Of a stretch of DNA of 64,000 nt, positions 8,232-37,037 are shown piece by piece. The notes beneath the pieces are model-generated. The model was not told where the DNA came from, did no database searches, and worked only from the letters and a program-made list of their open reading frames with translations. The translations under genes and the position numbers were made by a program. Position 1 is the stretch's first letter; each line of letters starts with the position of its first letter. The DNA is from Bacteroidota bacterium (lineage in GTDB: Bacteria > Bacteroidota > Bacteroidia > 2-12-FULL-35-15): NCBI GenBank assembly GCA_016707685.1, contig JADJHE010000003.1, positions 5,934-69,933 on the forward strand. Reading direction: 5' to 3'.

Positions 8232-8396
8232 ATGAGATTAATCTTTCCTTTAATTCTTGTTTTTGCTGCTTTGGTTTGGGCTTCTTATGCTTATTTTATT
8301 AAGAAAGATGCGAAATTAGCTAAGCAAATTGTTAGTTATACCGCATTTTTTGCTGTTATGTGGGTTGGATTATTCTTTTTAATTTTCTATAAATAA
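8232..8396 (+). CDS. Small (54 aa) two-helix membrane protein; its stop overlaps the mnmG start (TAATG)
   Basis: MRLIFPLILVFAALVWASYAYFIKKDAKLAKQIVSYTAFFAVMWVGLFFLIFYK. It falls below the ORF-track length cutoff. Coding status is unproven. Confidence 0.3.
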   Translation: MRLIFPLILVFAALVWASYAYFIKKDAKLAKQIVSYTAFFAVMWVGLFFLIFYK

Positions 8397-10301
8397 TGTT
8401 TAAAGAATACGATGTAATTGTTGTTGGTGCTGGTCATGCGGGCTGTGAAGCTGCAGCTGCAGCTGCTAATATGGGTTCTTCTACCCTTTTGGTTACAATG
8501 AATATGCAAACCATTGCACAAATGAGTTGTAATCCTGCAATGGGTGGAATTGCAAAGGGACAGATAGTTCGAGAGATCGATGCAATTGGTGGTTATTCCG
8601 GTATTGTTACCGATAGAACTGCAGTTCAATTTAGAATGTTAAATCGTTCTAAAGGTCCTGCGATGTGGAGTCCACGAGCACAAAGTGATCGTCATCGTTT
8701 TGCGGAAGAGTGGAGAGTAATGTTGGAGAATACTCCTAACCTTGATTTTTGGCAAGATATGGCAAAAGGATTATTGGTTGAGAATGGAAAAGTGTGTGGT
8801 ATTGTAACAGGAATGGATGTAGAGATAAGAGCCAAAGCTGTTGTTTTAACCAATGGAACTTTTTTAAATGGAGTAATTCATTTAGGTGAAAAGCAATATG
8901 GTGGAGGCCGTGCTGGTGAAAAAGCGAGTACTGGAATTACGGAACAATTAATTCAATTAGGTTTCGAAGCAGGTCGAATGAAAACAGGAACTCCTCCTCG
9001 AGTTGATGGAAGATCTTTAGATTATTCAAAAATGGAAGTGCAGCATGGCGATGAAAATCCCTGCTAAATTTTCATTTATGGATGTAAATCAATTTGAGTT
9101 TAGAAAGAAAAAAACAGATGCTTTTGCTAACGGACCCGAAATGCAAATGCCATGTTATATCACCTATACAAATTCTGAAGTACATGAAATATTAAAAACG
9201 GGGTTTGAAAAGTCACCCATGTTTACTGGTCGTATTCAAGGTTTAGGTCCGAGATATTGTCCAAGTATTGAAGATAAAATTACACGATTTGCTGAGAGAG
9301 ATCGTCATCAAGTTTTTGTTGAACCCGAAGGTTGGAATACGGTTGAGATTTATGTGAACGGTTTTTCTACTTCATTGCCCGAAGATGTTCAATACAAAGC
9401 ATTGAAAAAAATACCAGGATTTGAGAATGTAAAAATGTTCCGTCCTGGTTATGCAATTGAATACGATTATTTTCCGCCTCAACAATTGGCGTTAACATTA
9501 GAAACAAAGTTGGTTGAGAATTTATATTTTGCAGGTCAGATTAATGGTACAACTGGATATGAAGAAGCAGCTTGTCAAGGTCTAATGGCAGGTATAAATG
9601 CACACTTAAAAATTAACGGAAAAGAGCCATTTATTTTAAATAGATCAGAAGCATACATTGGAGTTTTGATTGACGATTTAGTTACGAAGGGAACGGAAGA
9701 ACCATATCGTATGTTTACCTCAAGAGCAGAATATAGAATTTTATTACGTCAAGATAATGCAGATATTCGTTTAACTCCAAAGGCATTTGAGATTGGTTTA
9801 GCATCTCAAGAACGTTTGAACCGAGTGAATGAAAAGATTAAAAATGCGCAAGAAATAATTAAATATTTCAAAACAGAAAGTATAGATCCTGAAGAAATAA
9901 ATCCAGCTTTAGAATTAATTGGCTCCTCTCCTATTGTCCAAAAAGTTAAAATGTTTGGAGTGTTAACCCGTCCTACTATTACACTTTTGGACTTTGCTTT
10001 GAATTCTCCAAAGGTGAAAGAATTTATTTCTAAGTATGATTTAGACAGTATTGAGCAGGCTGAAATTTTGATGAAGTATGAAGGATATATTTCAAAGGAA
10101 CACGAGTTGGTTGACAAACAAACTCGTTTAGAAGATTTAATATTGCACGATGATTTTGATTATAAAAGGTTAACATCATTATCTGCAGAAGCTCGTGAAA
10201 AGCTAACAAAAGTTCGTCCAAGAACAATTGGTCAAGCTTCCCGAATTTCTGGAATTACCCCATCCGATATTTCAATTTTAATGGTGTATCTTGGTAGATA
10301 G
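8396..10301 (+). CDS. mnmG: tRNA uridine 5-carboxymethylaminomethyl modification enzyme MnmG (GidA), split by a frameshift at a C-run near 9059-9062
   Basis: N-terminal FAD-binding motif [20 protein letters not shown]. ORFs 8396..9067 and 9045..10301 join as …QHGDENP|AKFSFMD…, and MnmG is normally one ~620-aa protein. Confidence 0.9.
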
Positions 10302-13553: not shown

Positions 13554-14273
13554 ATGAACATTCCCAACAGCACAGCAATAAAGGATTTTTGCAAAAAAAG
13601 TTTAAAGAAATTTTTTCTGATAAACGGAATTTTATTTGCCTTGTTGGTGTTTTTGAGTTTTACCGATTTGCCTTATTATGCCTACCACTGGCTAGGTACA
13701 TCAAGCCCGAAGTTAAAAAAACAACCCGAATTAATTGTCTTGTTGGGTGGTAGTGGAATGCCTAGTCCAGATGGATTAATTCGCTGTTATTATACAGCAA
13801 AAGCAGCAACAAAATTTCCTGCTACAGAAATTATTATTGCTCTCCCTTTTAATGAAACAGACAGTTTGCGACAACTGAGTTTAATGGCACACGAGCTTGT
13901 TTTGCGTGGTATTGATACTTCAAGAATTCGTTTCGAACCCATTGGTTTTAATACGCATTCACAAGCAGAAAACATTGCAAAACGTTATGAAAAAAGGAAA
14001 ACAAGCTTATCGGTGTTAATTGTAACCTCTCCCGAACACACATACCGAGCCGTTAAAACCTTTGCTGCTGTTGGGTTTAAACAAGTAGGAGGAGAGCCCA
14101 CATTCGAAAATCCTGTAGACGAAAGCAAGGTGAAAGACAACGAAAAGACGGATGATGCGCGTGTAAAAAGCCTTTCTTTGCGTTACAACATGTGGAGCTA
14201 TTTAAACTATGAGCTGCTCGTCTTGCGCGAATATGCAGCCATTTCCTATTATTGGCTAAAAAGATGGATATAA
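13554..14273 (+). CDS. DUF218 (YdcF/SanA/ElyC family) membrane-anchored protein
   Basis: N-terminal TM helix, then …ELIVLLGGSGMPSPDGLIRCYY… characteristic of DUF218. Confidence 0.65.
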   Translation: MNIPNSTAIKDFCKKSLKKFFLINGILFALLVFLSFTDLPYYAYHWLGTSSPKLKKQPELIVLLGGSGMPSPDGLIRCYYTAKAATKFPATEIIIALPFNETDSLRQLSLMAHELVLRGIDTSRIRFEPIGFNTHSQAENIAKRYEKRKTSLSVLIVTSPEHTYRAVKTFAAVGFKQVGGEPTFENPVDESKVKDNEKTDDARVKSLSLRYNMWSYLNYELLVLREYAAISYYWLKRWI

Positions 14274-14276
14274 AAA

Positions 14277-14303
14277 AAGAGCGCAAAACTGCGCTCTTTT
14301 TCA
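14277..14303. terminator. Bidirectional rho-independent terminator between convergent genes
   Basis: aaaaaAGAGCGCAaaactGCGCTCTtttt. Confidence 0.7.
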
Positions 14304-14320: not shown

Positions 14321-15680
14321 TTATTTTTGAATCACAATTTTTCTTGTTGCAACCCCTTCTGATCCAACTATTTTAACAAAATAAATGCCGCTGTAAAGAG
14401 TTTGAGTATCAAAAAAAGCAATTGTTTTTCCTTGATAAATGTTGCTTTTTTGAACCAACTTTCCGGTGGCATCAAACAATTCCACATTTAAGTTTTCTTT
14501 GTTAATTCCATTGATTTGTACCGCAACAAAATCATTTGCAGGATTTGGATACACATTTACTTCAAACAAATCGTTTTGAACAGTTGAAATGCTTGTTGTT
14601 GGAGCTGTGTATGTTGTTACGCTTTCTGAAATAGAAGTAACTTTTGCTGCTGTTTTTACACCATAAAATGTTGGTCCAACCGCATAAGGATAAGCAGAAT
14701 TCCAGTTTTCGTCAACCGTTGCAAAGTAGCAATAAATACCAGCAGGATATTCTGGTGTAACGCAAAAACGACCGTTATGTTCATCTAAATAATCAGACGC
14801 AATTGGTGCTGTGTATTGGTAATCTTCACGGAAATAACCCAATGGATAGGTTGCGCTTACAGCTGGTCCAGCAGTTACGCTAGCGCCCGTGTAATAAGTT
14901 GTTCTTGTTGTAATATTTCTAAGTGTCCAGCTTGATTTTATACGAACAATTCCACCAGTTCCATCGGCATTTTTAAAACCATATGCGCCATAAATTGGGA
15001 AGCCATCGTATGCAAAACCAATTAGTGGAGAGTGTTGTGTGCTATCGATAACATATAAACCATCCGCATCGTAAAGTGTACAAATGTTTGAAAGAACCGT
15101 TAAATCTAGTTTATAGGCGCTTGGGTTTTGGTGATGATGGTAGTTGCCCATTGCCGGATGTCCTTTTGAGCAATCGAATCCAGCTCTTTCTGCAACTACA
15201 GCATCTCTGTTCCAAACACCATCTCCAGTGCAAGGAGGTGCTATTGGGCCACCGCAAAGACTGCTTGTTGAGTTTTTCCAAGATACCCCATCTCTGTAAT
15301 CGAACAATGCAACACCATTTACAAAAACACCAATGTTTCCTCCTGTTGTTGCTGTTGGCGTTCCTGTGTTTTGAACAGGGTTTAAAGGAAATTTGAATAT
15401 TGCATTTTGGTCGGTTGCCAATGATGGATTGCCATCCAGAAAAGGACCTGTGGTATATGCAGGAATACCGTTTGTTGTAACATATACCGAAGAAGCCGAA
15501 GTATTGAACTGTTTGTATGTTTGCTAAAACATTATCGTTAATTGCAGTTGAGTTGCCGCTAACGTAGTGACTTCCCATTACTGTTGAATTTTGCATCCAT
15601 TCTAAAATGGCAGGGTTTGTTTGAGCGAAGCCTAATGAGCCGCCAATTAAAAATGTAAAAAGGGTGCTTTTTAATTTCAT
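14321..15680 (-). CDS. YHYH-domain protein with T9SS C-terminal sorting domain; frameshift near 15485-15500
   Basis: Signal peptide MKLKSTLFTFLIGGSLGFAQ is in ORF 15111..15680. The body (…SKGHPAMGNYHHHQNP…) and CTD (…VNVYPNPANDFVAVQI…YFVKIVGSEGVATRKIVIQK) are in ORF 14321..15421. Both frames are open across …TVQYFG / YVTTNGIPAYTTG… Its start overlaps the upstream gene's stop (ATGA). Confidence 0.6.
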
Positions 15681-16759
15681 AGTTCGTTTTTTATGATGTT
15701 GGTTAGGGTTATAGACGCTGAACTTTTTTTAATCCTTCGTTGGGTCGAAAAAAGATTTTTTGGATAGGAAAAATTTGGATTAAATAGAAAAGAGCGATCT
15801 GTTAGCGTTAATAAAAAAGCAACAATATCAACACGTTCATTTGCATTAAGGACAATCGGGTTTTGTAACTCTTTTGAAAGCGCTTGGTTGTGCAAAGCCC
15901 CTGTTGTATAGTGTTTAAGCACTTCTGATAGTTTTTTAAATCGCCCATCGTGCATGTAGGGGTAAGAAAATTCAATGTTTCGAAGACTTGGGACCTTAAA
16001 TTTTAATGAGTCTTTTGCATTTTTTGTTATTCCGAATCGTCCATAATCATTAAGTGTTGTGTCGATAGGCAATCCATTGGATTTAAATTCATTGTTTGTG
16101 AATAAGGGTTCGGTGTGACAGGAGGCGCAATTTTTTTTAAACAACAAATACCCGTTGTTTTCCTGTGATGTAAAAACAGCTTCTTTTCGCATTACACTGT
16201 CGTATTTTGAGTTGTGTGAAACAAGCGTTAGCATAAATTGCGAAAGGGCTTTTAAGGTGTGTTCTCCTGTTACTACAGAATCGCCAAAGGCTTGTAAAAA
16301 AGCGTTGGGTAGTGTTTTGAGTGTTGTAATTTTTACAACATTCGAAATGTTTTCGTCCATTTCTACAGGGTTAGCAATAGGAGCAAGGGCTTGCACGTCA
16401 AGGTGGTTTACTGCTCCATCCCACATAAAAAACTGTTGCCAGGCTAAATTTATTAAAGCGGGAGAATTTCGTGTTCCTATTTTATCCTCTATTCCATGGC
16501 TTAAAGCATGATCAACATGTGTGAATGCTGTATATTGAGAGTGGCAGCTGGCGCAGGAAACAATGTTGTTTCTTGAAAGCATAGGTTCATAAAAAAGCGT
16601 CCTTCCAAGTTCTATCGTGTTTTCGTTTAACGGGTTTTTAGAAAAATCATAAGTCGGTTTTGGCCAACCTTTTGGCACAACAAAAGGCTTTTCGGTCGCC
16701 AATTGAAAAGCAAACAAAACAAAACAAAAACAGAAAAAGAGAACTGTTTTTATTTTCAT
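15677..16759 (-). CDS. Di-haem cytochrome c peroxidase (CCP/MauG/MbnH family)
   Basis: Two CxxCH motifs (CASCHSQ, CASCHTE) and the conserved …YMHDGRFKKLSEV… region. Signal peptide present. Length 360 aa. Confidence 0.85.
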   Translation of the reverse strand: MKIKTVLFFCFCFVLFAFQLATEKPFVVPKGWPKPTYDFSKNPLNENTIELGRTLFYEPMLSRNNIVSCASCHSQYTAFTHVDHALSHGIEDKIGTRNSPALINLAWQQFFMWDGAVNHLDVQALAPIANPVEMDENISNVVKITTLKTLPNAFLQAFGDSVVTGEHTLKALSQFMLTLVSHNSKYDSVMRKEAVFTSQENNGYLLFKKNCASCHTEPLFTNNEFKSNGLPIDTTLNDYGRFGITKNAKDSLKFKVPSLRNIEFSYPYMHDGRFKKLSEVLKHYTTGALHNQALSKELQNPIVLNANERVDIVAFLLTLTDRSFLFNPNFSYPKNLFSTQRRIKKSSASITLTNIIKNEL

Positions 16760-17454
16760 GGATCAATAATTTTAAATGATTTAATCGCCTGTTCAGAAAG
16801 CAAAACTGCTGTTTTGCTGGGCGACATGATTTGGTTTAGTGTTGACAAATCAACAACAGAAAGAAATTGATTGATATCAAAAACGACAATTATTATTTTT
16901 TGATTTGTTGTTTTAAGGGTAGCCGTTTTAAGACAATTGAAAGGCGTTTGATAGCCACCCAAATGGAATTCAAAAGCATGATTTCGTGTTGGACAATTAT
17001 TGCTTTTGCCTTCTAGTTTAAAATTTATATAGCCGCTTTGCCAAGTCCAATACATTCCTTTGGTTGGATCAAGGTCGGCACCCATTGCTCCTGAAACGTT
17101 GGTAGTGCTATCTATTCCAAGGCTAAAGGAAAGTTCGTCAAAATTAATTTTGTTTGTGTTTTTAATACTAAGCGTTTGTGAATTTTTGTTGGAGGCGTCA
17201 ATCAGATGAAAGCTGTTTTTTTCTGGAAGAACAACGGTACCATTTTTTAAAAAACAAATATTGGAAACATAGAATCGAAGTGCATCAATTTGTAAATGAT
17301 TGGAATCGTTTGCAACAAAAGAAGAGTCGCTTAAATCAACGTTTTTTCCATTGTAATGAGCAACGAACGAAACCGTAATTGTTGAATCGGATTGAGCAGA
17401 AACAAATTGAATTAAACTGAAAATAAAAAAAACAACGAAGCGAAATTTCTTCAT
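16756..17454 (-). CDS. MbnP-like periplasmic protein, usual partner of MbnH-type di-haem peroxidases (putative copper-binding)
   Basis: Signal peptide, 232 aa, Trp-rich core (…KGMYWTWQSGYINFKLEG…). Translationally coupled (4-bp overlap) to the downstream peroxidase. The family assignment is from memory and needs an HMM check. Confidence 0.45.
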   Translation of the reverse strand: MKKFRFVVFFIFSLIQFVSAQSDSTITVSFVAHYNGKNVDLSDSSFVANDSNHLQIDALRFYVSNICFLKNGTVVLPEKNSFHLIDASNKNSQTLSIKNTNKINFDELSFSLGIDSTTNVSGAMGADLDPTKGMYWTWQSGYINFKLEGKSNNCPTRNHAFEFHLGGYQTPFNCLKTATLKTTNQKIIIVVFDINQFLSVVDLSTLNQIMSPSKTAVLLSEQAIKSFKIIDP

Positions 17455-17918
17455 TATTCTGGTCGTTTTGGCGGATGTGGTGGCGCAAACAGGGCTGCGA
17501 TTTCTTTGCTTAGTTTTTCAAAAGCAACCAGCTGGTCAGGCCTACACAGGTTTTTAATGTCTTGAAAATGTTTATAGTGAATTGTTTCAATGTTTTTTTG
17601 AATAACACTAATTTCATTTATCAGTGAGTCTTTTGTTGCTGCGTTAGAATCAATAAGCGTTGAATACAATTCGTTTTTTAATACAACAATTTGTTCTTGT
17701 GATTTGTCTATTTCGCTGCGATGCCAATGAATTAGCAATTCGTATTGTTTAACTTGGTTTTCATCAAAATCAAGTTTATTAATGATAATGTTTCGCGGTC
17801 CGCCATTTGGTCCCGGCCCACCATGTTTTGGTTTGTTTGATAACAAAAACCATAACAAAGTAATGTTTGCTAATAGCAAACCAACAGATAGAATACTGAG
17901 GAGTTTAACTTTATTCAT
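17454..17918 (-). CDS. Periplasmic Spy/CpxP-like (heavy-metal sensor / LTXXQ family) protein
   Basis: Signal/TM anchor, helical 154-aa protein with a proline-rich tail (…PPHPPKRPE). Coupled between the anti-sigma and MbnP-like genes. Confidence 0.45.
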   Translation of the reverse strand: MNKVKLLSILSVGLLLANITLLWFLLSNKPKHGGPGPNGGPRNIIINKLDFDENQVKQYELLIHWHRSEIDKSQEQIVVLKNELYSTLIDSNAATKDSLINEISVIQKNIETIHYKHFQDIKNLCRPDQLVAFEKLSKEIAALFAPPHPPKRPE

Positions 17919-18174
17919 GTGTATATAAATCGTTGTTTGGCATTAAGTTCATTGACTCGGCAACACTTGCAACACTGTTGTTTTGTTTTGTTTTATATAC
18001 AAGCGCTCCAGCATTAAAAACAACAATAAAAACAAAGGAAAGGCTGAGTGCGAATGCAAATTTCTTTGGCAAAACCGTTGAATAGGTCTTTTCAATTTTT
18101 TGTTGAATGCGCGTAAACAGAAAAGCAGGAGCGTCTACTGCCTGAATTTTTTTATGTAATTGATCGATGTTCAT
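17911..18174 (-). CDS. Putative anti-sigma factor (small single-TM protein)
   Basis: 87 aa, one TM helix, immediately downstream of the ECF sigma gene, overlapping the next gene by 8 bp. Confidence 0.4.
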   Translation of the reverse strand: MNIDQLHKKIQAVDAPAFLFTRIQQKIEKTYSTVLPKKFAFALSLSFVFIVVFNAGALVYKTKQNNSVASVAESMNLMPNNDLYTHE

Positions 18175-18211
18175 TTGTTTGTTATTAATGTGTTTGACGA
18201 GATTCTTTTTT

Positions 18212-18733
18212 TTATCCTTCGTTTGTGTTTAATTTTTTAGAAAGATTTGTTTTTGCTCGTTGTATTAATGATTCAATTGCCTTTGGACTCGTTTGCATTA
18301 TTTCAGCAACCTCTACCTGTGTTTTATTTTCTATTTTATGAAGTATTAGTGCCGTTTTTTGATTGTCGGGTAAGTCATTAATGTGCTTAAAAATTGCGGC
18401 AATCGATTCTTTGTCTTCTAGTAAAATGCCAGGATGATCAAATGTTGGCTGGTCGTGTTTTAAATCACTGCTGTTATCAAAAAACAGAGAGGTTAAAAAA
18501 GCGAATCGTTTTTTTCGCTGTTTAGACTTAATGTAATCGAGCGATTTGTTGATTGTAATGCGGTATATCCACGTTTTAAGGGTTGATTCTCCTTTGAATG
18601 AGGAAAAAGATTGGTGCACAGAAAGAAAAACGTCCTGCGTAATCTCTTCGGCATCCTCTGTATTTTGAACATACTGAAGCGCAAGGTTAAATACCATGCC
18701 AGCATGAATGTTGTATAATTCTTCGAATGTCAA
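18212..18733 (-). CDS. RNA polymerase ECF-type sigma-70 factor
   Basis: Sigma-70 region 2 (…DAEEITQDVFLSVHQSF…WIYRITINKSLDY…) and region 4 (…NQKTALILHKIENKTQVEVAEIM…). Confidence 0.85.
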   Translation of the reverse strand: MTFEELYNIHAGMVFNLALQYVQNTEDAEEITQDVFLSVHQSFSSFKGESTLKTWIYRITINKSLDYIKSKQRKKRFAFLTSLFFDNSSDLKHDQPTFDHPGILLEDKESIAAIFKHINDLPDNQKTALILHKIENKTQVEVAEIMQTSPKAIESLIQRAKTNLSKKLNTNEG

Positions 18734-18962
18734 GTGTTGCTATTGTGCTACGAAAGATAGGCAATTAGTTTGCTATGCAAACAACAGACAAAAGAAAAGC
18801 GAAAAGGTTTAATTTACATTCGTGTTTATAGTCTTTTGGTTTTCAGCAAGATGTGTGTTTACTGGGCCCTCCCAAACCAAATTTCGCTCAAATTTAGTTT
18901 GTTGGCGTTGACTAAATTCAACTATACTTGCGGCCTTAAAAACAAATTATACAACAACAAAA

Positions 18963-21895
18963 TTGAAAAAAACAAATTATATATACGCTTTAATTTTTTG
19001 TTTTTTACAGGTCAATTTTTTTTGTCAAGACGCACATCCATCCTTTGAGCAATATAACGTTGAGGATGGCTTGGCTAGTTCCGAAATTTATCAAGTAAAA
19101 CAAGATTCTAAAGGCTATATCTGGTTTGCAACGGGCAATGGCGTTAGTCGTTTCAATGGATACGAGTTTGAGAATTTTTCGATGAGTAATGGTTTGCCCG
19201 ACAATACCGTTTTTGAGGTAGTTGAAGATTTTGAAGAACGAATTTGGTTTGTTCCTATTTCGTGCAAGCTAAGCTATTATTACAAAGGAAAAATTTATCC
19301 ATTCAAATACAACGATGAATTACAGAAACGAATTAGCGGACGAATAAAAACATCTTTTTGTGTAAATCAGGAGGGAACAATTTTTTTAGGTGTTGGAACG
19401 GATGGCATTTATGAAATTACAAAAGAGGGTAAAATTACCCACCGAATAGAGGAAGGAGCGAGCAAAAACAGCGCAGTAATCACAGAGCCTATTAAAGGAA
19501 GCTATATTTATTCAAACAATCGTTTCAGAGAAAAATATTCGGTATTATTTGATACAGAATTAATAAAAGGAGAAATGCTATTTAGTGAAGACATGAGCTT
19601 GCTTCCTAATAACGCTCGTGTTATAAAAACAAAATCCAATAAAATTTTAATTTCCAGTTTCAATAAACTATTTATTGTATCAGGAAAAGACAATTATCAA
19701 ACAGCACTTTTTCCAAGTCGAATAAATTCAATCTATGAAGACAGTGATGGTGATCTTTGGGTTGGGCTTTATTTAGGTGGTGTGTATTATGTGCCCCATT
19801 ATGATTTTTCTAAGAAAAAGAATTACCTCTTAGACATTTCTGTTAATGGAATTATTCAAGACAAAGAAAAAGGTTTTTGGTTTGCAACAGAAGGTAGTGC
19901 AGCTTATTATAGCCCTTCAAAGCAGTTGTTAAACTATGATCGCGACTCCAAACTAAAAGACAATCGAACCAATTGCTTAGCAACGGATGGCAATTCTGTT
20001 TATGTTGGTTTACAAGGTGGTTTTGTGCATAAAATAGATTTAAATGGTGAAATAAAGACTTATGATTGCAACAAAAAAGGAGAATATCCCAATGGTGTTT
20101 CTGCTTTGTTTTATGATAATGAAACCGATGCGTTATTTGTTTCTGGGAACCTAAAAAACCTTGTATTAAAAAACAATCAGGTTTCTTCTACGGAAGAGGT
20201 AATTCGTTTCCGAGGAGTTCAAAAAGATGAAAAAGGAACGTATTGGTTGGCCTGTTCATATGGTTTGGGTAAAATAGAGAAGGGTGGAAAACTAGAAATT
20301 TTATTTCAAAAGGAAAAAGAGCTAAAGCGCATCAATGCCCTTTTGTGGGACAAAAACAAAAAACTTTTGTTTGCTGCAATTGATGGTTTGTGGCGCTTTG
20401 ATCCAGAAACAAACAATTGTGATTATTTAGGAGAAAAAGACCCACTTTTAAAAGTTCGAATGTTGGATTTAAAATACATGTCGAATGGTTCCCTAGTCAT
20501 TGCAACGAAAGGCGCTGGTCTTTTAATTTATGATGAGAGTAGAGTTTACCAAATAAACGAGCAGAAGGGTTTGTGTGGTGATAATGTTTACAAGGTTTGT
20601 ACAGATGGAAATACCGTTTGGGCGGCTACAAACAAGGGTTTAAATAAAATCGTTTTTTCACAAAACGAACCACAACAATATACGATCACCAGTTTTACAA
20701 CTTTTGACGGATTGGCATCAAACGAGATAAACGATGTGCTTAAGTTTGACAGTAAAATTTGGGTTGCAACCAACAAAGGACTAACGGTTTTTAATCCGAA
20801 TCAATTAACCAAAACAAGCGTTTCGATCCCACTTTACATTAACAAAGTGCTCGTAAATGACGAAGATCAAGTTTTAGAAAAAGTTTATCAACTAAAACAC
20901 AACCAAAATAATCTGAAAATTAGTTTTATTGGTTTGGGCTATAGAAATGCCGGAAAGTTAAAATACCGCTATAAAATGCTTGGTATTGGTTCGGATTGGA
21001 ATTATACCGAATCAAGGGAAATACAGTTTACAACGCTCCCTGCTAATGAATACACTTTTGTTTTGTCGGTGTTAAACCCAGACGGAACCTGGAGCAAAAA
21101 CGAAGAGGTAATTAATTTTATAGTGCTGGCTCCATTTTGGCAGAAATGGTGGTTTTTGGGTTTAATGGTGCTGCTTTTATTTTTTGTTATTGTATTAGTA
21201 ATCCGATATCGTGTTAATAAAGCTCATCGTGAGGAAGAAAAAAACCTCAGCCTATACAAAGTGTTGATGGGTTTAAAACTAAAGGCGCTGCGCGCCCAAA
21301 TGAACCCTCATTTTACATTTAATGTGATGAATTCTATTCAACACTTTATTCTGAATAAAGATGAAGAGTCGGCTATTCGTTACCTTTCAAAATTTTCAAA
21401 ACTAATACGTGCAATTTTAAACAATTCAGAAAAAAACACAATTACCGTATCCGAGGAATTAAATGTATTGGAGCTTTATATGGAATTAGAAGCCATGCGT
21501 TTTGAGCAGCGATTTGAATATGAAATATACGTTGAAGAAACAATTGACAGAGAGGCCGTTGAAATACCATCCATGTTAATTCAACCATATGTGGAGAATG
21601 CTGTTAAGCACGGGATATTGCCATCTGCACAAAAAGGAAAATAAAAATAGAACTGTACAAGGAGGGCAAGCTTATTAAATGTGTTATTGAAGACAACGGA
21701 GTGGGTAGGGTAAAAGCGGGCGAAACAAAAGAAAGCGATGAACACAAGTCGTTTGGAACAAATATTACTCAAGAGCGCCTTGCAGTTATTAACGAGTTGT
21801 ATAACAGTAAATTATCCGAAAAAGTAGTTGATTTATATGATGAAGCAGGCAATGCAATTGGAACAAGAGTAGAAATTTTTATACCCATTGATTAA
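18963..21895 (+). CDS. Sensor histidine kinase with periplasmic Y_Y_Y / two-component-regulator-propeller domain and LytS-type His_kinase plus HATPase; frameshift in an A-run near 21630-21650
   Basis: β-propeller repeats (…GYIWFATGNGVSRFNG…), then TM, then …MNPHFTFNVMNSIQ… (His_kinase PF06580-type). After …SAQKGK the reading continues in another frame as IKIELYKEGKLIKCVIEDNGVGRV… (HATPase). The start codon is uncertain (TTG at 18963). Confidence 0.8.
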
Positions 21896-21898
21896 TTT

Positions 21899-22629
21899 AT
21901 GAAAGCAATTATTGTTGAAGATGAAAAGAAAGGACAAGAGATTCTCTCTTCTTTAATTTTAAAATACTGCACCGATGTAGAAATTATTGGAATGGCCGAC
22001 AATGCGGAGGACGCTTATTTGCTGATAAAAAAAATGAAACCCGATGTTGTGTTTTTAGACATTGAAATGCCCAAAGGGAATGGGTTTTATTTACTAGAAA
22101 AATTCGACAAAATAAATTTTCAAATCATTTTTACAACCGCTTACGATAATTATGCAATAAAAGCGATTAAGTACCATGCATTGGATTATTTACTAAAACC
22201 AATTGATATTGATGAGCTAAAGCAAGCTGTTGAGAATGTTAAAAAGGCATTGTTAAAGCCAGAGAATACAAGGTACATCGATTTTTTAACAACACGTAAA
22301 TTAGATTTTGAAAATCGATTAGGCCTGCCTGTAAAGGATGGAATCATGTACCTTCAGGTGGCAGACATAATTCGCATTGAGTCAGACGGAAGCTATTCAA
22401 CCATTTATTTATCAAAATCACAGAAACATGTAGTGTCCAAAAATTTAAAAAGAGTATGAAGATGTTTTACCGGTAAAGGAGTTTTTTAGGGTACACAAAT
22501 CACATTTAATAAATATTAAAAAAGTAAAAAAATACGTTCGTCAAGATGGTTATTTTGTGGAAATGGAAGACGGAAGCCAAGTAGAAATAGCACGAAGAAA
22601 GAAAGACGAGTTTTTACAGACCATGAACT
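21899..22629 (+). CDS. LytTR-family response regulator (REC plus LytTR DNA-binding domain); frameshift at an A5 run near 22447-22451
   Basis: REC domain (…VVFLDIEMPKGNGF…). The LytTR domain continues out of frame (…KEYEDVLPVKEFFRVHKSHLINIKKVKKYVRQDGYFVEMEDGSQVEI…). Confidence 0.85.
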
Positions 22630-26089: not shown

Positions 26090-29000
26090 TTATTTAGTAA
26101 TCACTAATTTTTGAACAACATTTTTATTTTCTGTTTTAACGGTTAGGAAATATGTTCCAGCGTTAATGTTTTCAGTATTTAAAGAAACAATTTGTCCTTG
26201 TGCAACATTTTGAATTGTTGATGAAGAAACCGTTCTTCCTGTTACATCTGTAATTGAAATGATAGAACCATTTGCAATTGCAGCATCAAATCTTACGTTT
26301 ACTTGACCATTTGCAGGGTTTGGATATACTGCAATTGTGTTTTCAACTGTTGTGTTATTTATTCCTGTAACATTTCCAACAGTTGCAGTAACCGTGTCAC
26401 GAACGCTTGTACAAGCTATTGATGGTCCTTCAATTTGGATGTCGTAAAAATAGTAATAAACAGTTGTTCCTTGATTTGATCCTGTTAATGTCACATATCC
26501 ATTCAATACATATGGATAAGCCGTTCCTTGGTTGCTTCTAAATAATTTTGGAGCAACAGAACCTAAGTTTGTTTGGTTAACAGTTGTGTTTGTTGTTAAA
26601 CGATAAGCTGTTCCAACATTTAATGACCAGTTAAGCGTTACTACTGTTGTGTCTGCAGGTAAAGCAATTGACAAAGAGTTGATAACTGTTCCAACAGAAT
26701 TTTTCAATTGAATTTCACGTGTTCCAGCAACATCTGTGTATACTTTAACAGTTTTTAATGTACAAGTTCCTAATACATCAAAATCAACAGATCCATTTGT
26801 TGTAGTTGAATAGTTGTTTGTTCCTTGGAAAAATTCTGGACCAACACCATTAACTGCTCCTGGGTAGTTGAATGATTCCTCAACGAAATAATTTGTTGTT
26901 GTACTAATTACCGGTGTTGTGTAATTAGCGCCAGTAGCTAATAATGTTCCACCAACCGCTTGGTTATACCAAGTAATGTTTGAACTATTAGTACCAGTAG
27001 CGGTTAAGTTAAATGATGTTGGAGTTGCACTTGTTTGGTCAACTCCAGCAGGAGCTGGTGATGTGCTAACAGTAACAGCTGTTGGCGCAGCATTAAATGC
27101 AGCACAAGTTCCTTGAATTGTTAAGTTGTAAGTTCCAGATGTTGGAGGGTTAATAGATTGAGTCGTTGCAGTAAATCCGTTTGGACCCGTCCAAGTATAT
27201 CCAGCAGCAGCAGTACTAGAAAGTGTTAGTGTTCCTTGGCAAGTATTTGCTCCAGATTGACTAACGGTTGGTGTTTCGTCTGGGTTTAATACAACTGCTA
27301 CTGTTGGAGAAACGTTTGTACAAGCACCATTAGATACTAATACGTTAAAGTTTCCTGTTGTAGATGTTGTTACGGATTGCGTTGTTGCTCCTGTATTCCA
27401 GTTGTATGATGAAAAACCGTTATTAGCAGTCAATGTTAATGTTTGGCTAGTACACAAGTTGTATGGACCAGGGATTGTGTTGTTTGTAATACTACAAGTT
27501 CCTTCTACAGAAGAAACAAACTGATCAGCATTCAATGAACCAAAGTTTGTTGTTAAACCAGATGGCCAATCGATACGAGCAGAGTCAATTGTTGTGTTTG
27601 TTCCCAAACCAAAGTGCAAGTTAAACGAGTTAACAGTACCATAGCTTTCGCCAGCACGCACTTCACGAATTTGTGTTCCAAATGCTCCGTAGATTGTAAC
27701 ACGTGCACCAATTGCATCGTGATTACTAACTGTTCCTGTTAAAGCAAATGTAATAAAGTGGTTTGCATTTTTATTGTTTAAATACAAAACATCGTTTGTT
27801 GATCCTGGGCTGTTATAGATATCGCCATAAGAAGCGAAAATATCAGCGAATCCATCGTGATTTAAATCACCACAAGCAAATGAAACCATTCCGCCTGTTT
27901 GTGACATACCAGCGTTACCAACCAATGTAAATGTTTTGTTTCCATTGTTTTTGTATAAAACAAAGTTTGATCCAGTAACGAAAATATCTACAAATCCATC
28001 GTTATCAAAATCTTCGAAGAATGATTCGATTGGTTGTGATCCTGCGCCAGTGGTAGAGAAACCAGTTGTTGCTGTAATATCTGTAAAGTTTCCAGAGCCA
28101 TCGTTTTCAAAAATTTGACTTGCTATATCATGGTTAGTAACCATTAAATCAAAATCGCCATCATTGTCAATGTCACCGTAGCTTCCTGTCCAAGTTTGGT
28201 TAAAATCTCCCGCTTCAATTCCATGTGCAGAAGCCATATCGGTGAAGTTTCCGTTTCCATCGTTTACGAACATTCTGTCTTTTCTTCTTAAGTCAGTAAC
28301 GCTAGATGATGCTTGACGGCAATGAGCAACATAAAAATCCAAATCACCATCATTATCAAAATCTAACCAAGCGCTTCCGTAGTTACCAGAATCTGCAGGG
28401 TCGCCACCATAAGTTGCTGTGCTTATTTGGTGATTAAAAACAATGTTTGGATGTACTGACCAAGTTGGGTGTGTTCCTGATCCTACAACCGAAGTAACAT
28501 TTACAACCATAGCACCTGTTCCTGAGTTATAAGAAGTAACAGTACCTGTCATGTATTTTGTTCCATCATAACCAACCTTTACGGTTTGACCATTTGTAAA
28601 ACTTAAGCCCGTTTGTACGGTTAAACTTTTTGAACCAGTTCCAATAGTCATTGAAGTTGTTGAATGTGCTAAAAACTGTAAATTTCCAGCGCCATCATTC
28701 ATATAAACTTTAGCGTAGGCATTATCATCGCACACATATACATCATCCCATCCATCATTATTAAAATCTCCACAAGTTATATTTTGTGTAAAAAAATTAG
28801 AGTTAGATAGCGTAGTTTGTGTTTTTACAACAGCAGAACCGTTCCAAGAAAGTTTTGCTAAATAAACACTTCCATTTGGACCAGTAACAACATCTTTCCA
28901 TCCATTGTGGTCGAAGTCGGCAACAGCCATTCCCCAAACGCCAGAACCAGAAACGTTTCCAACGTTGTAAGAAGTAAAGTTGCCATTTCTAGCTTGTAAA

Positions 29001-29215
29001 TCAACCCATAGCGTTGTTGATTGATCCATACGAACGATATCATCTAATCCATCGTTGTTTACATCCACTACAGTAACACAGTTTCCACTGCGCATGCTTG
29101 TAGGGGTTAATCGAGAGTTTGAATTTGTAAATCCAAACTGTGCGTTTGCGTTTAACGCTCCAATCACAAGACCAGAGCCTAATGCAACCGTACGCATAAA
29201 AGTAAATTTATTCAT
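26090..29215 (-). CDS. FG-GAP/VCBS repeat plus ASPIC/UnbV domain protein (CRTAC1-like) with T9SS C-terminal sorting domain
   Basis: Signal peptide, repeated …DVNNDGLDDIV… / …DFDNDGDLDFYV… FG-GAP repeats and an …ARIDWPSG… ASPIC/UnbV-like segment. The C-terminus is …AVYPNPANGQVNVRF…YFLTVKTENKNVVQKLVITK. Confidence 0.8.
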   Translation of the reverse strand: MNKFTFMRTVALGSGLVIGALNANAQFGFTNSNSRLTPTSMRSGNCVTVVDVNNDGLDDIVRMDQSTTLWVDLQARNGNFTSYNVGNVSGSGVWGMAVADFDHNGWKDVVTGPNGSVYLAKLSWNGSAVVKTQTTLSNSNFFTQNITCGDFNNDGWDDVYVCDDNAYAKVYMNDGAGNLQFLAHSTTSMTIGTGSKSLTVQTGLSFTNGQTVKVGYDGTKYMTGTVTSYNSGTGAMVVNVTSVVGSGTHPTWSVHPNIVFNHQISTATYGGDPADSGNYGSAWLDFDNDGDLDFYVAHCRQASSSVTDLRRKDRMFVNDGNGNFTDMASAHGIEAGDFNQTWTGSYGDIDNDGDFDLMVTNHDIASQIFENDGSGNFTDITATTGFSTTGAGSQPIESFFEDFDNDGFVDIFVTGSNFVLYKNNGNKTFTLVGNAGMSQTGGMVSFACGDLNHDGFADIFASYGDIYNSPGSTNDVLYLNNKNANHFITFALTGTVSNHDAIGARVTIYGAFGTQIREVRAGESYGTVNSFNLHFGLGTNTTIDSARIDWPSGLTTNFGSLNADQFVSSVEGTCSITNNTIPGPYNLCTSQTLTLTANNGFSSYNWNTGATTQSVTTSTTGNFNVLVSNGACTNVSPTVAVVLNPDETPTVSQSGANTCQGTLTLSSTAAAGYTWTGPNGFTATTQSINPPTSGTYNLTIQGTCAAFNAAPTAVTVSTSPAPAGVDQTSATPTSFNLTATGTNSSNITWYNQAVGGTLLATGANYTTPVISTTTNYFVEESFNYPGAVNGVGPEFFQGTNNYSTTTNGSVDFDVLGTCTLKTVKVYTDVAGTREIQLKNSVGTVINSLSIALPADTTVVTLNWSLNVGTAYRLTTNTTVNQTNLGSVAPKLFRSNQGTAYPYVLNGYVTLTGSNQGTTVYYYFYDIQIEGPSIACTSVRDTVTATVGNVTGINNTTVENTIAVYPNPANGQVNVRFDAAIANGSIISITDVTGRTVSSSTIQNVAQGQIVSLNTENINAGTYFLTVKTENKNVVQKLVITK

Positions 29216-29284
29216 GTTGGGGTAAATAAATTGGTTAATAATTAGTTATCAATTGTTTAGAGAATACTAAAGGAAACAAAAAAA

Positions 29285-31228
29285 TTATGATTTAACAACT
29301 TTTTTGGTGATTATTTTATTTCCGGTTCTTATTTTTATGTAATAAACACCTCTTGCGTTCGGAAGGTAAAAGTTGAATTCCGATTGATAATTGGTGTTGT
29401 AAATAGCACTAACTCGCGCACCAGAAGACGAAAACACCTCAATGTTTTTAATTAATTCGCCATATTGAGCACTTATAAATACTTGGCCATCCATTGAAAT
29501 GCTTGGCCAAACGTTTATTGTATTCACAGAATTAGCTGCAATTCCAGTAACAGTGTTGTTTAAGCTATCAACTCCAACTAAAAAAGGAGTTTGGTCAGCA
29601 TTTTGAAACATTGTTTTAAAAGTGTTGATTGGTGTGCTGTTGAAAGCAAACATTTCGTCTGTATATTTTGGAGGAACAGATTGGTAATACACTTTTGCTT
29701 TTGCTTGCATGCTTCCACTAAATCCATTTAGTGGAACTCTATAGTGAACATAGTCCATTCCAGACCCCTCTACAGCATTTGTTTTATTAAAATCATCATC
29801 AGAAATTGCAGCACCAACAATTTTAACAGTATCGTAGGTGCTGTGAGCTGTTGTAAATCCTAATGGTGGAATTCTATTATCTTTTAATTGTGCGGCAGCT
29901 CTTTCTAAAACGGTTGTTACGTTTGAATTTACATCGCCCATTACCATCTCATAAATTTGAGGAACATTGTTTTGATTGATTATGTTATGATGTACTTCAA
30001 ACGGATTCGTTTCGCCAACAACACGGTAGGTGTTTGTAAATGTTCCTGATTTAAAAAGGGTGTCATTGTTTGTCCCCGTTACAATAAACTGAACAACGGC
30101 TCTGCGAGAAGGATAACCAGAAGGGAACTTGTGTCCTGTTTTGTTTTTTAGTTTCACTCTAAAATAAGCGGTATCGTTTATTGTGCTGTCTAAAAACAGG
30201 TTTATGTCAAGCGATTGAAGTTTTAACATGTTAGATGTTGCTACAAGTGTAGAGTCGAATTTGGCATCATCTGCATTTACGCCTAATGCCACCTTGTTGT
30301 TTTTAATCAAGTTGAGCATAAAATAATTTGCTCCAGCAAATGTGTGTTGATTAAAAGGAAACCTTCCCTGTAGTGAAAGAATGCCATTCGAGATAACAAT
30401 TGGTTCGTTTATTTTAGGCATGTGGCATGATTGACAAGTGGTGGTAGTTCCTGAATAGCTGGAGTTTAAATATTCGTGGTAGGTTGCTTGTTCAACAAAT
30501 TCGCCACCGGTTAAATTGCCCGACAAATCAGCCGTTTGGGTAATTAGTGTATGGCAAGAAGAACACATTCTTGCTTTGCTCACATGGTTACTAAATGTTG
30601 GAGTTATTCCTTCATACAAAACCATTGGTCCAGTAAACGGACTTCCAAATGGACCATATTCAACATGGTTTGTATCGTAAGGAATTTCTCCAGAAAAGGT
30701 TGAGCCAACACTCGGATCAATCATATGACAAGATCCACAAGCAACACCATCGAGGCCAAGCGAGTCGGTTTCTAAATCATTCATTCCATAATATTGTTGA
30801 CCATGAAACATGGCTGTATATCTTCCCATTGGCGCATGACAAGAAGTACATTTGTTTTGTAGTTCGGCAGCATGTGCAGGATTAACTAATATTTCATGAC
30901 TAACTTTCGCTCTCCATAAAGGATCTTTTGCACTAAGTGCCATCATCGATGTTTGCCAACGATCAACAAGGTTTACATCACTACCATCTTCTAATATATT
31001 TGCTTGATGAATAGAGTCGTAACCATGACAACCACTACAGTGAGAAGAGTGTAAAAAATATTCCCCAGCTTCAATTGGAGCCCTTTTAAATCGGTCTTTT
31101 AAAGCAGTTAGCTCATCTTCAGAATGAAAAGATTTTTTTGTAGTTTTTGAAGTTGCCGAGTTCAAAAAATAAAAGCCAATTGCAAAAGCAGTTAGCAATG
31201 TTATGGTGGTAATTTTTTTAATCTTCAT
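29285..31228 (-). CDS. Pentahaem c-type cytochrome with T9SS C-terminal sorting domain
   Basis: Sec signal. Five CxxCH motifs (CSGCH, CTSCH, CGSCH, CSSCH, CQSCH) lie within the first ~270 aa, then a ~380-aa haem-free region, ending in a T9SS-type tail (…GVYYIKIRTGNKIITKKVVKS). It lies 70 bp upstream of the FG-GAP/ASPIC gene. Confidence 0.8.
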   Translation of the reverse strand: MKIKKITTITLLTAFAIGFYFLNSATSKTTKKSFHSEDELTALKDRFKRAPIEAGEYFLHSSHCSGCHGYDSIHQANILEDGSDVNLVDRWQTSMMALSAKDPLWRAKVSHEILVNPAHAAELQNKCTSCHAPMGRYTAMFHGQQYYGMNDLETDSLGLDGVACGSCHMIDPSVGSTFSGEIPYDTNHVEYGPFGSPFTGPMVLYEGITPTFSNHVSKARMCSSCHTLITQTADLSGNLTGGEFVEQATYHEYLNSSYSGTTTTCQSCHMPKINEPIVISNGILSLQGRFPFNQHTFAGANYFMLNLIKNNKVALGVNADDAKFDSTLVATSNMLKLQSLDINLFLDSTINDTAYFRVKLKNKTGHKFPSGYPSRRAVVQFIVTGTNNDTLFKSGTFTNTYRVVGETNPFEVHHNIINQNNVPQIYEMVMGDVNSNVTTVLERAAAQLKDNRIPPLGFTTAHSTYDTVKIVGAAISDDDFNKTNAVEGSGMDYVHYRVPLNGFSGSMQAKAKVYYQSVPPKYTDEMFAFNSTPINTFKTMFQNADQTPFLVGVDSLNNTVTGIAANSVNTINVWPSISMDGQVFISAQYGELIKNIEVFSSSGARVSAIYNTNYQSEFNFYLPNARGVYYIKIRTGNKIITKKVVKS

Positions 31229-31317
31229 TTTAATAGGGGTATTGTGCTACTAACAAATGTAATAAAATACAATTGGAAAAGAAATTTGTTGACGAAAATC
31301 AGTTTTGGAGAAAAAAT

Positions 31318-31347
31318 AAAGCCTTCCGAACCCCTTCGGAAGGCTTT
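31318..31347. terminator. Hairpin terminator downstream of the porP/sprF-like gene
   Basis: aaaGCCTTCCGAAccccTTCGGAAGGCttt. Confidence 0.6.
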
Positions 31348-31382
31348 GCAATTAAACTAAACCCCAACCGCACTAAACAGTC

Positions 31383-32435
31383 TTAAATACGAGATTTAAA
31401 ATGTTTGTTTCCAAACATGGATGGATATACCCAACGCAAGGAGATTTCGAATCCACCTCTAGCGGAAGAAGCAACTTTTAATTTGGATAAGTTAACATCA
31501 TAACTAAATCCAATGCAGTAGTTAGAGTATTCAAATTTTGCGATAGCAATGAATGCATCTTGCAAACGGTAATATGCTCTCAACGAAAAAGCAGAAGATT
31601 TTTTTAAGCCAGTGTATTTTGAGCCCTCTTGCAAAACATATTGAAATGTCATTCCTGGATTAACCTCTGTTGTTGCACCTTGTAGAAAAACAATATAAGA
31701 CGGTTTTAGAATTAAATTACTATTTGGCATTCCAATCGAAGCATTACCATTTAAAACAATTTTCATACTTAGTCGCTCTCCTGCTCCATAAAAGGAATAA
31801 GCAGGGCGGTGAGGATGAAAAACAGCAACACCTAAGCTTATTTTTCTTGCATTATTTGCAGAAATGTATGCTTCGTCTGTACCATAATTGTATTGTAATC
31901 CAGCACCCAAATCGAACATGGTGAAGCTTCCTGGCAGACTTGATTCCCCTGTTGCAGCAGCAGCATCATAGTTTGTTCCATTGTATTGATTGCCCCATGT
32001 TAGTTTAGATGCATTCATGCTTCGTTGTCCAAAACCAGCAACAATGCCTCCCGACAAAATACTTTTATCGTTTAGATTAATCAGTCCTGCAATGGATAAG
32101 TTTACTTGGTTTGAACCAAGTGAGGCATCACCTGCTTTGTCGCTGAAAAAATCGAGGCCCAAGCCGAGGTGATGTTTTTTGTTTTTTAATAAACGTGCAT
32201 CAAAGGAAAATGCATAGGTTCGATAAGGAGAACCAATGCTTTGCCATTGATTTTTAAAATTAAGAATTGCCCTTACCTCGTGTTGAACGCCAACTGTTGC
32301 AGGGTTAAGCTGAACAGGTGTTTCATCAAACTGAGAAAAGTGGATGTCCTGAGCCGTTGTTGTATTTGCAAATGCAAAGACAGCAAAAGCCCATGTTGTA
32401 ATTTGTAAAAACGATTTTTTGTTTTTTTTGTACAT
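31383..32435 (-). CDS. PorP/SprF family T9SS outer-membrane β-barrel protein
   Basis: Signal peptide and the family N-terminal motif …AQDIHFSQFDETPVQLNPA… Length 350 aa. Positioned immediately downstream of a type-B CTD adhesin gene, as in sprB-sprF pairs. Confidence 0.8.
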   Translation of the reverse strand: MYKKNKKSFLQITTWAFAVFAFANTTTAQDIHFSQFDETPVQLNPATVGVQHEVRAILNFKNQWQSIGSPYRTYAFSFDARLLKNKKHHLGLGLDFFSDKAGDASLGSNQVNLSIAGLINLNDKSILSGGIVAGFGQRSMNASKLTWGNQYNGTNYDAAAATGESSLPGSFTMFDLGAGLQYNYGTDEAYISANNARKISLGVAVFHPHRPAYSFYGAGERLSMKIVLNGNASIGMPNSNLILKPSYIVFLQGATTEVNPGMTFQYVLQEGSKYTGLKKSSAFSLRAYYRLQDAFIAIAKFEYSNYCIGFSYDVNLSKLKVASSARGGFEISLRWVYPSMFGNKHFKSRI

Positions 32436-32545
32436 CTTAAAAAAGAGTTAGTAGTAGTTTTTTCTTTTTTGTAGTGATTTAAAAAATAACAACGCAAATT
32501 AGTTGTGTAGTTTTCATGTTGAGTGTAAGTTTATTGGTTTATAAT

Positions 32546-36862: not shown

Positions 36863-37037
36863 GCGTTTTTTGTTGAGTGTAAATATTATCCAACTCAAAA
36901 ATAAATTAGAAAAACAGTATCCAATAAAAAAATCCAAACATTATTGGAAGTCTGATATGTACCATTTAAAAATAAATCCTATATTTATCAGTATGTTTAT
37001 TATACAAAAACGATTTTATTATTATAAATGAGTAGCC

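Follow-up and report, generated by a model that had tools for sequence, protein, structure and literature searches.

An MbnP–MbnH–YHYH gene cluster preceded by a proposed CnrYXH-like sigma-factor module in a Bacteroidota genome

Genes of the locus and their families

We analysed a cluster of minus-strand genes in a 64,000-nt stretch of DNA from a Bacteroidota bacterium (GenBank assembly GCA_016707685.1, contig JADJHE010000003.1, positions 5,934 to 69,933 of the forward strand); this whole stretch is called the window below. In the order of transcription the cluster encodes an extracytoplasmic function (ECF) sigma factor, a small membrane protein, a periplasmic protein related to Spy and CnrX, an MbnP-family protein, a di-haem enzyme of the MbnH type and a YHYH-domain protein tagged for export by the type IX secretion system (T9SS) (Table 1). 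The MbnP–MbnH–YHYH triad is the conserved unit, while the sigma factor, the small membrane protein and the Spy-like protein form a separate module present in about half of the genomes; we come to this view because of locus counts and reciprocal tests given in the next section.

Five intact open reading frames (ORFs) run from 18733 down to 15677 in the ORF table. An earlier annotation made from the letters of the DNA and the list of ORFs (the sequence-only reading) had described six minus-strand genes between 18733 and 14321; the first five are intact as described, and the sixth is split in the assembly. The first four junctions given there agree with the ORF table: a 37-nt gap separates the sigma gene from the 87-aa ORF, and overlaps of 8, 1 and 4 nt follow between the 87-aa and 154-aa ORFs, the 154-aa and MbnP ORFs, and the MbnP and di-haem ORFs, respectively. 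A strong hairpin ends the unit, with a convergent gene (13554–14273) on its far side.

Table 1. Positions of the cluster's genes, of the flanking signals and of T9SS-related genes in the window
Feature	Position	Strand	Remarks
ECF-type sigma factor	18212–18733	−	173 aa, TTG start
Small single-pass membrane protein, putative anti-sigma factor	17911–18174	−	87 aa
Membrane-anchored periplasmic protein of the Spy/CpxP/CnrX superfamily, proposed sensor	17454–17918	−	154 aa
MbnP-family periplasmic protein	16756–17454	−	232 aa, signal peptide, WxW = W136-T-W138
MauG/MbnH-type di-haem enzyme	15677–16759	−	360 aa as assembled; ∼344 aa after correction
YHYH protein with T9SS type A C-terminal sorting domain	14321–15680	−	split into ORFs 15111–15680 and 14321–15421
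Bidirectional terminator-like hairpin	14274–14301	.	12-bp stem between A and T runs
Region 5′ of the sigma gene with unverified promoter candidates	18734–18830	−	candidates conserved with locus L001
FG-GAP/ASPIC protein with sorting domain	26090–29215	−	
Multihaem cytochrome-like protein	29285–31228	−	
PorP/SprF	31383–32435	−	
SprB-repeat protein	32546–36937	−	1463 aa, CHU_C signal

The closest relative found (locus L001) is 85% identical to the window in DNA and colinear with it across 11.4 kb, and alignment of the two locates the fault in the YHYH gene. The 1360 nt of this gene amount to 453 codons plus one nucleotide; the 5′ ORF (189 aa) carries the start and the signal peptide, the 3′ ORF (366 aa) carries the YHYH and sorting domains, and one surplus base lies at ∼15501. 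With this base removed the gene encodes 452 aa, 97% identical to the protein of L001. The di-haem gene has a 1-nt deletion at ∼15746 (six T against seven in L001), which exchanges the normal end of MbnH (‘...KD*’, 344 aa in most relatives) for a tail of 23 residues reaching the start of the YHYH gene. The corrected protein ends in ‘...NLFSxPTKD*’, with the stop codon at 15729–15731 and a 48-nt spacer to the YHYH gene, the same as in L001; the spacer measures 42–48 nt in relatives. The ATGA overlap between the peroxidase and YHYH genes, from which the sequence-only reading had deduced translational coupling at this junction, is therefore an artefact of the deletion in the T-run. The long tail is unique to the window copy: long MbnH proteins (∼359 aa) considered for some relatives were rejected, as the tblastn matches in question cross stop codons.

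Comparison with L001 disclosed two more single-base coding indels, at 21637 (histidine kinase) and 22447 (LytTR regulator), both in or beside T-runs. Since single-base indels of the same kind, several in homopolymer runs, occur in other nearby genes, the frameshifts of the window are most likely assembly errors, and the organism's operon is thus probably intact. The pattern resembles residual error of the homopolymer type, and the locus tag IPH89 probably belongs to long-read metagenome-assembled genomes from activated sludge. Programmed frameshifting at 15501 was also considered and rejected, as the site lacks a slippery sequence, the gene reads in frame in relatives and there are three other single-base coding indels in the vicinity. 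One could also suppose that the frameshifts are real, so that the operon is decaying in this organism and YHYH, like the kinase and regulator genes close to it, has recently become a pseudogene; indeed, as assembled, the YHYH gene is split and the MbnH tail aberrant, and the insertion at 15501 is outside any long homopolymer. Nevertheless, we hold genuine decay to be improbable. Four single-base coding indels would have struck 11.4 kb of otherwise well-conserved genes, with mnmG split elsewhere in the window (8396–9067 and 9045–10301); three of the four lie in T-runs; and, once corrected, the YHYH gene is free of further damage at its high identity to L001 and the MbnH tail regains the family consensus.

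The 232-aa protein, described in the sequence-only reading as a Trp-rich MbnP, matches PF20243 with 143.5 bits (cutoff 27) over profile positions 2–188 of 189. Its AlphaFold2 (AF2) model has a predicted local distance difference test (pLDDT) score of 85.5, and in a Foldseek search of the PDB its only significant match was the MbnP of Methylosinus trichosporium OB3b (7L6G; E = 4e-9, probability 1.0, TM 0.60, 14% identity), with the runner-up at E = 0.18. These two matches bear out the family assignment; the epithet Trp-rich has to be dropped, as the protein has two Trp in all, W136 and W138. Both belong to a WxW inside a motif, ‘GMYWxWQSGY’, that is invariant in 33 of 33 MbnP sequences; H83, M134, W136, W138, H164 and M210 are invariant in the same set. 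The characterised MbnP is a kynurenine-dependent copper protein, as shown by experiment; the Trp that forms the kynurenine lies within its WxW, and the other ligands are His, Met and water (PMC11951088). The score of the window protein against the NCBIfam equivalog model (TIGR04052, MbnP_like_WxW) was 44.2 bits, below the cutoff of 140; judged from these profile scores, it is a member of a distant subfamily and not an equivalog. The AF2 model is weakest at residues ∼120–135 (pLDDT 53–63), a conserved loop with the sequence ‘GGDLDPTKGMY’ just before the WxW; as modelled, this loop may be flexible and may form a metal site or a docking site for MbnH.

The di-haem enzyme matches PF03150 (CCP_MauG) with 168.8 bits, and its top NCBIfam model is that of MbnH (TIGR04039, 204.3 bits, against 168 for MauG), with the TIGR04039 cutoff of 362.85 not reached. 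It is co-linear with the MbnH structure 6E1C over residues 26–334. Residue Y284 aligns with the Tyr of 6E1C (‘IY’) and with the ‘TM’/‘IM’ position of classical peroxidases, a position that we take, from MauG and bacterial peroxidase structures, to be the distal ligand of the second haem. Y284 and both CxxCH motifs (C69–H73 and C211–H215) are invariant in 78 of 78 homologues. On these residues and profiles we characterize the enzyme as MauG/MbnH-like and not as a classical peroxidase. A single-sequence phmmer comparison gave 139 bits for classical peroxidases versus 124 for 6E1C, as one would expect if the protein were an ordinary periplasmic cytochrome c peroxidase that clears H2O2 next to unrelated neighbours. 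We regard that as extremely unlikely, given the co-linearity with MbnH through the C-terminus, the rank of the NCBIfam models and the MbnP gene adjoining in all loci counted below; the classical identity was rejected on the invariant Tyr standing where Met would be expected. The sequence-only reading had paired this enzyme with MbnP as an MbnH partner, and this pairing is upheld.

The YHYH protein matches PF14240 with 194.9 bits (cutoff 25); its C-terminus matches the sorting domains PF18962 (58.4 bits) and TIGR04183 (62.4 bits, cutoff 23). A YHYH protein bearing a T9SS export signal, of type A, is thus what the sequence-only reading had proposed and what we found. The genome has the secretion system itself, as seen from PorP/SprF and other proteins with C-terminal sorting domains (CTD) within the window. 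Intact orthologues adjoining MbnP and MbnH genes are of 448–459 aa and 62–97% identical. The YHYH family at large is broad, with 2054 clusters at 50% identity ranging from phage tails to giant surface proteins. In a set of 40 diverse YHYH domains, D139 is found without exception and H88, H95, H97 and H130 in 90% or more (residues counted in the 366-aa ORF), and these residues would fit a metal site; the same His triad and Asp occur in the PF14240 domains of phage tail and large bacterial surface proteins, in contrast to which the proteins of this locus type are compact (∼450 aa), carry a T9SS sorting domain and have a fixed place beside MbnP and MbnH. A Zn2+ site and hydrolase activity have been predicted for YHYH, with the conserved His triad and Asp described (PMC7824862). 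The sequence profile matched only the sorting domain when compared with the PDB. Full-text literature search returned no paper linking YHYH with MbnP and MbnH, though the principal MbnP paper may hold an earlier mention.

Conservation in other genomes and accompanying genes

A scan with the MbnP alignment, one genome per species, detected at least 509 relatives. We retained 80 loci, chiefly of Bacteroidota but also of Ignavibacteria and Kapabacteria, and made neighbourhood counts in the 58 non-redundant loci with enough flank. MbnH adjoins MbnP in all 58. YHYH is present in 47: in 35 it follows directly downstream, in eight it directly precedes MbnP and in four it has another place in the locus; the remaining 11 have none. 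In 22 of the 58 loci the orthologous sigma gene is adjacent, and in eight more it stands elsewhere in the locus, so that about half are without the sigma module; where either the sigma or the Spy-like gene is present, the two are found together in 29 of 31 loci. Reciprocal tests agreed with these counts: all four YHYH homologues examined have MbnP next to them, and of four Spy-like homologues three belong to a series sigma, anti-sigma, sensor, MbnP, MbnH, the fourth standing before unrelated cargo. The flanking genes differ from locus to locus, and because the gene order recurs with different flanks in dozens of genomes it is far beyond chance. The six-gene order implied by the sequence-only reading holds in part: MbnP, MbnH and YHYH are co-conserved in both directions of the test, whereas the six genes as one entity are not, about half of the loci being without the sigma trio. 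The anatomy of the locus, the family and fold assignments and this co-conservation are matters of observation.

YHYH is the more conserved partner, with identities of 62–73% versus 43–54% for MbnP. Between the window and L001 the values are 79% (MbnP), 88% (MbnH), 93% (sigma) and 97% (corrected YHYH); MbnP evolves much faster than its partners in this pair. Several individual loci are worth mentioning. In L087 (6274–8365) YHYH directly follows MbnP with no MbnH between them or nearby, an exception to the adjacency of MbnP and MbnH. In L093 (5161–9252) the trio of sigma, anti-sigma and Spy-like genes precedes genes for a PqqD-like protein, an ATP-grasp enzyme and an Orn/DAP decarboxylase instead of MbnP and MbnH, and its upstream neighbours are the same as those of the locus in Flavobacterium sp. 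AS60 (L090); the regulatory trio can thus couple to other cargo. Cultured carriers exist: Flavobacterium sp. AS60 (GCA_021608185.1) has the full six-gene arrangement with a second YHYH gene and an arylsulfotransferase with sorting domain, and Parasediminibacterium sp. JCM 36343 (L039) has the triad without the sigma module.

Clustering of all neighbouring ORFs revealed genes that recur in same-strand clusters together with the triad. A T9SS-tagged multicopper oxidase was found in 12 of 82 loci, a T9SS-tagged sulfatase-family protein in ∼10 and AhpC/TSA thioredoxin-like proteins in ∼8; a TonB receptor, a P-type ATPase, a CotH-like CTD protein and an arylsulfotransferase were seen occasionally. 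Among independent indications of a link to copper, the multicopper oxidases are the strongest. In other copper-related operons, too, AhpC_TSA genes are reported next to genes resembling MbnPH (PMC9426467). Larger same-strand clusters with multicopper oxidase, sulfatase-family and AhpC/TSA additions are seen in L019, L036, L023, L047, L049, L046, L066, L010, L013 and L029. Two YHYH paralogues occur in L023, L049, L029, L078 and L090. The usual sulfatase motif is C-x-P-x-R; the sulfatase-family representative of L023 has ‘CSSTR’ in its place.

Divergent from the sigma gene, the window carries a Y_Y_Y sensor kinase and a LytTR response regulator (18963–22459, plus strand). The kinase gene (Y_Y_Y/His_kinase) is broken into 18963–21644 and 21701–21895, and the regulator (21899–22459) has 186 aa versus 245 aa in L001. 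This pair stands beside the operon in L001 too; it is probably unrelated to the operon, because it is absent beside the operon in more distant relatives. Overlapping same-strand ORF pairs at 43585–44493/44456–45874 and 56289–56984/56875–58683 are possible further splits. Further along, the minus strand holds a T9SS-related block (26090–36937), whose members are listed in Table 1.

The regulatory genes

The first gene of the cluster encodes an ECF sigma factor, in agreement with the sequence-only reading: it matches Sigma70_r2 (58 bits), Sigma70_r4_2 (43 bits) and the sigma70-ECF model TIGR02937 (97.5 bits, cutoff 42.9), and its orthologues, 42–93% identical, occupy the same position in relatives. 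For the 87-aa product of the second gene we found no match in Pfam or NCBIfam. It has a single hydrophobic segment (residues 41–59), and an alignment of 22 sequences showed a conserved cytoplasmic N-terminus, ‘APPFLxTRIQQKIE’, and a conserved periplasmic tail, ‘SMNLxpxNxLY’; in the loci inspected its gene always lies between the sigma and Spy-like genes. From this position and topology it is a putative anti-sigma factor.

A promoter of ECF type upstream of 18733, for which the sequence-only reading had suggested looking, did not emerge clearly from our search. Two candidates conserved with L001 were seen, ‘GCAAAC-N15-CGTAG’ (∼18771–18749) and ‘TTAAACC-N16-GTCTG’; no common bipartite ECF motif was detected across 35 sigma-upstream regions, which were anchored on the conserved start with all AAC-type −35 candidates listed. 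Loci with the sigma gene elsewhere are single co-directional operons and thus offer no second promoter for comparison. A scan for the sigma-70 consensus gave matches below the shuffled expectation.

The 154-aa protein had been read as Spy/CpxP-like. The protein of the window itself matches no Pfam model; the superfamily assignment stands at the level of a profile built from 40 orthologues, of which 17 match PF13801 (Metal_resist) and eight match LTXXQ. Compared with solved structures, the profile matched Spy (E = 1.4e-4), NccX (E = 0.016), CnrX (E = 0.14) and also ZraP; Spy rather than CnrX is thus the best solved relative. The alignment with NccX is of full length and includes the N-terminal anchor, at marginal similarity. 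Within the family Q55 and Q129 never vary, and H66, H117, F118 and C125 are kept in 90% or more of the sequences. H117 aligns with the metal ligand H119 of CnrX and NccX, and in the NccX alignment H66 falls one helical turn past the position of the CnrX ligand E63; the CnrX ligands H42, H46 and E63 have non-ligand residues at the aligned positions, and the family has a conserved Cys, C125, alongside H66 and H117. A metal site in this family, if it exists, would therefore differ from that of CnrX. One orthologue is labelled ‘periplasmic heavy metal sensor’ by NCBI.

The sequence-only reading had counted this protein among the genes driven by the sigma factor, that is, as cargo. We do not keep this placement, since the protein travels with the sigma and anti-sigma factors, is membrane-anchored and aligns with NccX and CnrX over the full length. 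Because the sigma and Spy-like genes co-occur as frequently as they do, we propose that the protein may be better read as a CnrX-like membrane-anchored sensor than as a chaperone. The opposite view would have a Spy/CpxP-like periplasmic chaperone that helps in folding or protection of MbnP or YHYH under envelope stress, the sigma and anti-sigma pair sensing general envelope damage. It accords with the rank of Spy ahead of NccX and CnrX, with the retention of both LTXXQ-like motifs, with the absence of three of the four CnrX zinc ligands and with the annotation of orthologues as CpxP/Spy by several sources. Still, we think a chaperone unlikely: the Spy-like gene is linked to the sigma and anti-sigma genes and not to MbnP (the triad occurs without it in 27 of the 58 loci), and in L093 the trio sits before unrelated cargo. 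Moreover, the N-terminal hydrophobic anchor is retained and the NccX alignment starts at it, while H66, H117 and C125 are conserved in this family and not in Spy. The helical LTXXQ-type superfamily is common to Spy, CpxP, ZraP and the protein of the window; the anchor, the link to a sigma and anti-sigma pair and the His/His/Cys set are what set the latter apart.

With the sensor reading, the first three genes resemble the nickel/cobalt switches CnrYXH and NccYXH of Cupriavidus metallidurans. An ECF sigma factor, a short single-pass anti-sigma candidate and a membrane-anchored periplasmic protein are encoded together; the parts have similar sizes (sigma factor, ∼90-aa anti-sigma factor, ∼150-aa sensor). 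In both cases the cytoplasmic part of the anti-sigma protein is short and its periplasmic tail conserved, and the sensor belongs, by profile, to the Spy/CnrX fold family. In CnrYXH the membrane-anchored sensor binds metal and frees the sigma factor via the periplasmic tail of the short anti-sigma factor (PMC6851896). The differences are considerable. The order here is sigma, anti-sigma, sensor instead of cnrYXH; of the CnrX metal ligands H42, H46, E63 and H119 (M123), only H119 has a conserved counterpart (H117), and a conserved Cys is present instead of the others; the cargo is MbnP, MbnH and YHYH instead of a resistance–nodulation–division (RND) efflux pump; and the sensor similarity is marginal (E = 0.016–0.14).

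Proposed role of the operon

The nearest characterised counterpart of the triad is the MbnP/MbnH pair from the methanobactin operon of Methylosinus trichosporium OB3b (7L6G and 6E1C). There, as here, the two genes are adjacent; the MbnP fold and the WxW are common to both, as are the Tyr at the position of the second-haem ligand and the C-terminal extension of MbnH. The window MbnP differs in length (232 versus ∼290 aa) and in having only two Trp, besides its low identity to 7L6G. Methanobactin genes are missing here and a TonB transporter usually so; the Mbn operons have the FecIR-like MbnI/MbnR by a TonB-dependent transporter, in contrast to the CnrYXH-like switch, with small anti-sigma and separate sensor, of the present operon. 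Finally, the secreted YHYH protein makes a conserved third partner that the Methylosinus pair lacks. In MopE/CorA of methanotrophs and their di-haem partners (MCA2590/CorB), a MauG-like enzyme likewise stands beside a kynurenine-ligand copper protein and one member is surface-associated or secreted. The folds of MopE and CorA are unrelated to that of MbnP (PMC11951088), and the secreted member of the present operon is a separate, T9SS-exported protein with no evidence of kynurenine. The literature already describes isolated MbnPH pairs with an ECF sigma/anti-sigma pair and a TonB transporter close by (PMC3621798). Relative to that known association, the present operon differs, by sequence comparison, in its distant MbnP and MbnH subfamilies, its CnrYXH-like switch and its fixed YHYH partner.

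A copper or oxidative-stress role, as suggested in the sequence-only reading, is plausible for the operon, and from homology and gene linkage we infer the following mechanism. The Spy/CnrX-like protein would sense a periplasmic signal, likeliest a metal and probably copper, by its His/His/Cys set; the signal would be relayed via the periplasmic tail of the anti-sigma factor, as in CnrX–CnrY–CnrH, and the freed sigma factor would transcribe the operon. By homology with the Methylosinus pair, the His/Tyr-ligated MbnH would turn a Trp of the MbnP WxW into kynurenine and create a copper site, with which MbnP would handle periplasmic copper. YHYH would cross the periplasm and be exported by T9SS to the cell surface; the tight linkage suggests that it would there form the system's extracellular arm, as a metal-dependent enzyme or a metal-binding partner. 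That the window locus is an instance of a widespread operon of the Fibrobacteres–Chlorobi–Bacteroidetes (FCB) group, with an MbnP/MbnH/secreted YHYH core, a CnrYXH-like switch in front and this copper-linked working, we rate at slightly better than even.

A number of observations weigh against such a reading. Both the MbnP and MbnH proteins of the window fall under the NCBIfam equivalog cutoffs, and neither phmmer nor a 33-sequence profile linked the MbnP clade by sequence to 7L6G in the PDB, even at E ≤ 10; the invariant H83, H164, M134 and M210 are thus candidate equivalents of its copper ligands. The published prediction makes YHYH a Zn hydrolase and not a copper protein, and its AF2 model reached a pLDDT of 40 (from a 34-sequence alignment with all members at least 67% identical). 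The loci without YHYH, those without the sigma module and the failure of the sigma-upstream regions to share a motif count in the same direction, as do, for the sensor, the absence of a Pfam match in the window protein, the precedence of Spy and the replaced CnrX ligands. The system may serve copper uptake, loading or maturation of a secreted cuproprotein, or detoxification.

These points could be taken further, to an operon that has nothing to do with copper: YHYH would attack an external polymer as a secreted Zn-dependent hydrolase, and the MbnP-like protein, with its residue modified by MbnH, would have another role, such as that of a redox cofactor, of a protein that binds a different metal, or of a partner to YHYH or an inhibitor of it. 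The prediction of a Zn2+ site and hydrolase activity (PMC7824862), the distance of the MbnP clade from the characterised protein (14% identity, scores below equivalog cutoffs) and the mixed accessory genes of relatives (sulfatase family, arylsulfotransferase, CotH-like protein) can be cited in its favour. We find this rather improbable in view of the WxW and invariant His and Met residues that MbnP retains and of the multicopper oxidases recurrent in the same clusters; besides, the one function that experiment has shown for the MbnP fold is copper binding (PMC11951088).

Within the copper-linked reading, one tentative extension is that YHYH is itself a secreted cuproprotein, an enzyme or a scavenger, whose metal centre would be loaded or matured by MbnP and MbnH in the periplasm before export by T9SS; we think of this as possible, though on balance doubtful. 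If this is true, MbnP would serve a T9SS cargo as its dedicated metallochaperone, or MbnH would have a second substrate, and the result would be a first function for the YHYH domain as well as a physiological role for MbnP and MbnH outside methanotrophs.

The value of the finding is that of a family-level lead; because of the assembly errors in it, the window copy adds little by itself. MbnP/MbnH pairs are widespread, and the fixed triad of Bacteroidota ties the pair to YHYH, sometimes together with secreted multicopper oxidases and an ECF switch resembling a metal sensor. The triad thereby poses the question of how the cargo of T9SS gets its metals.

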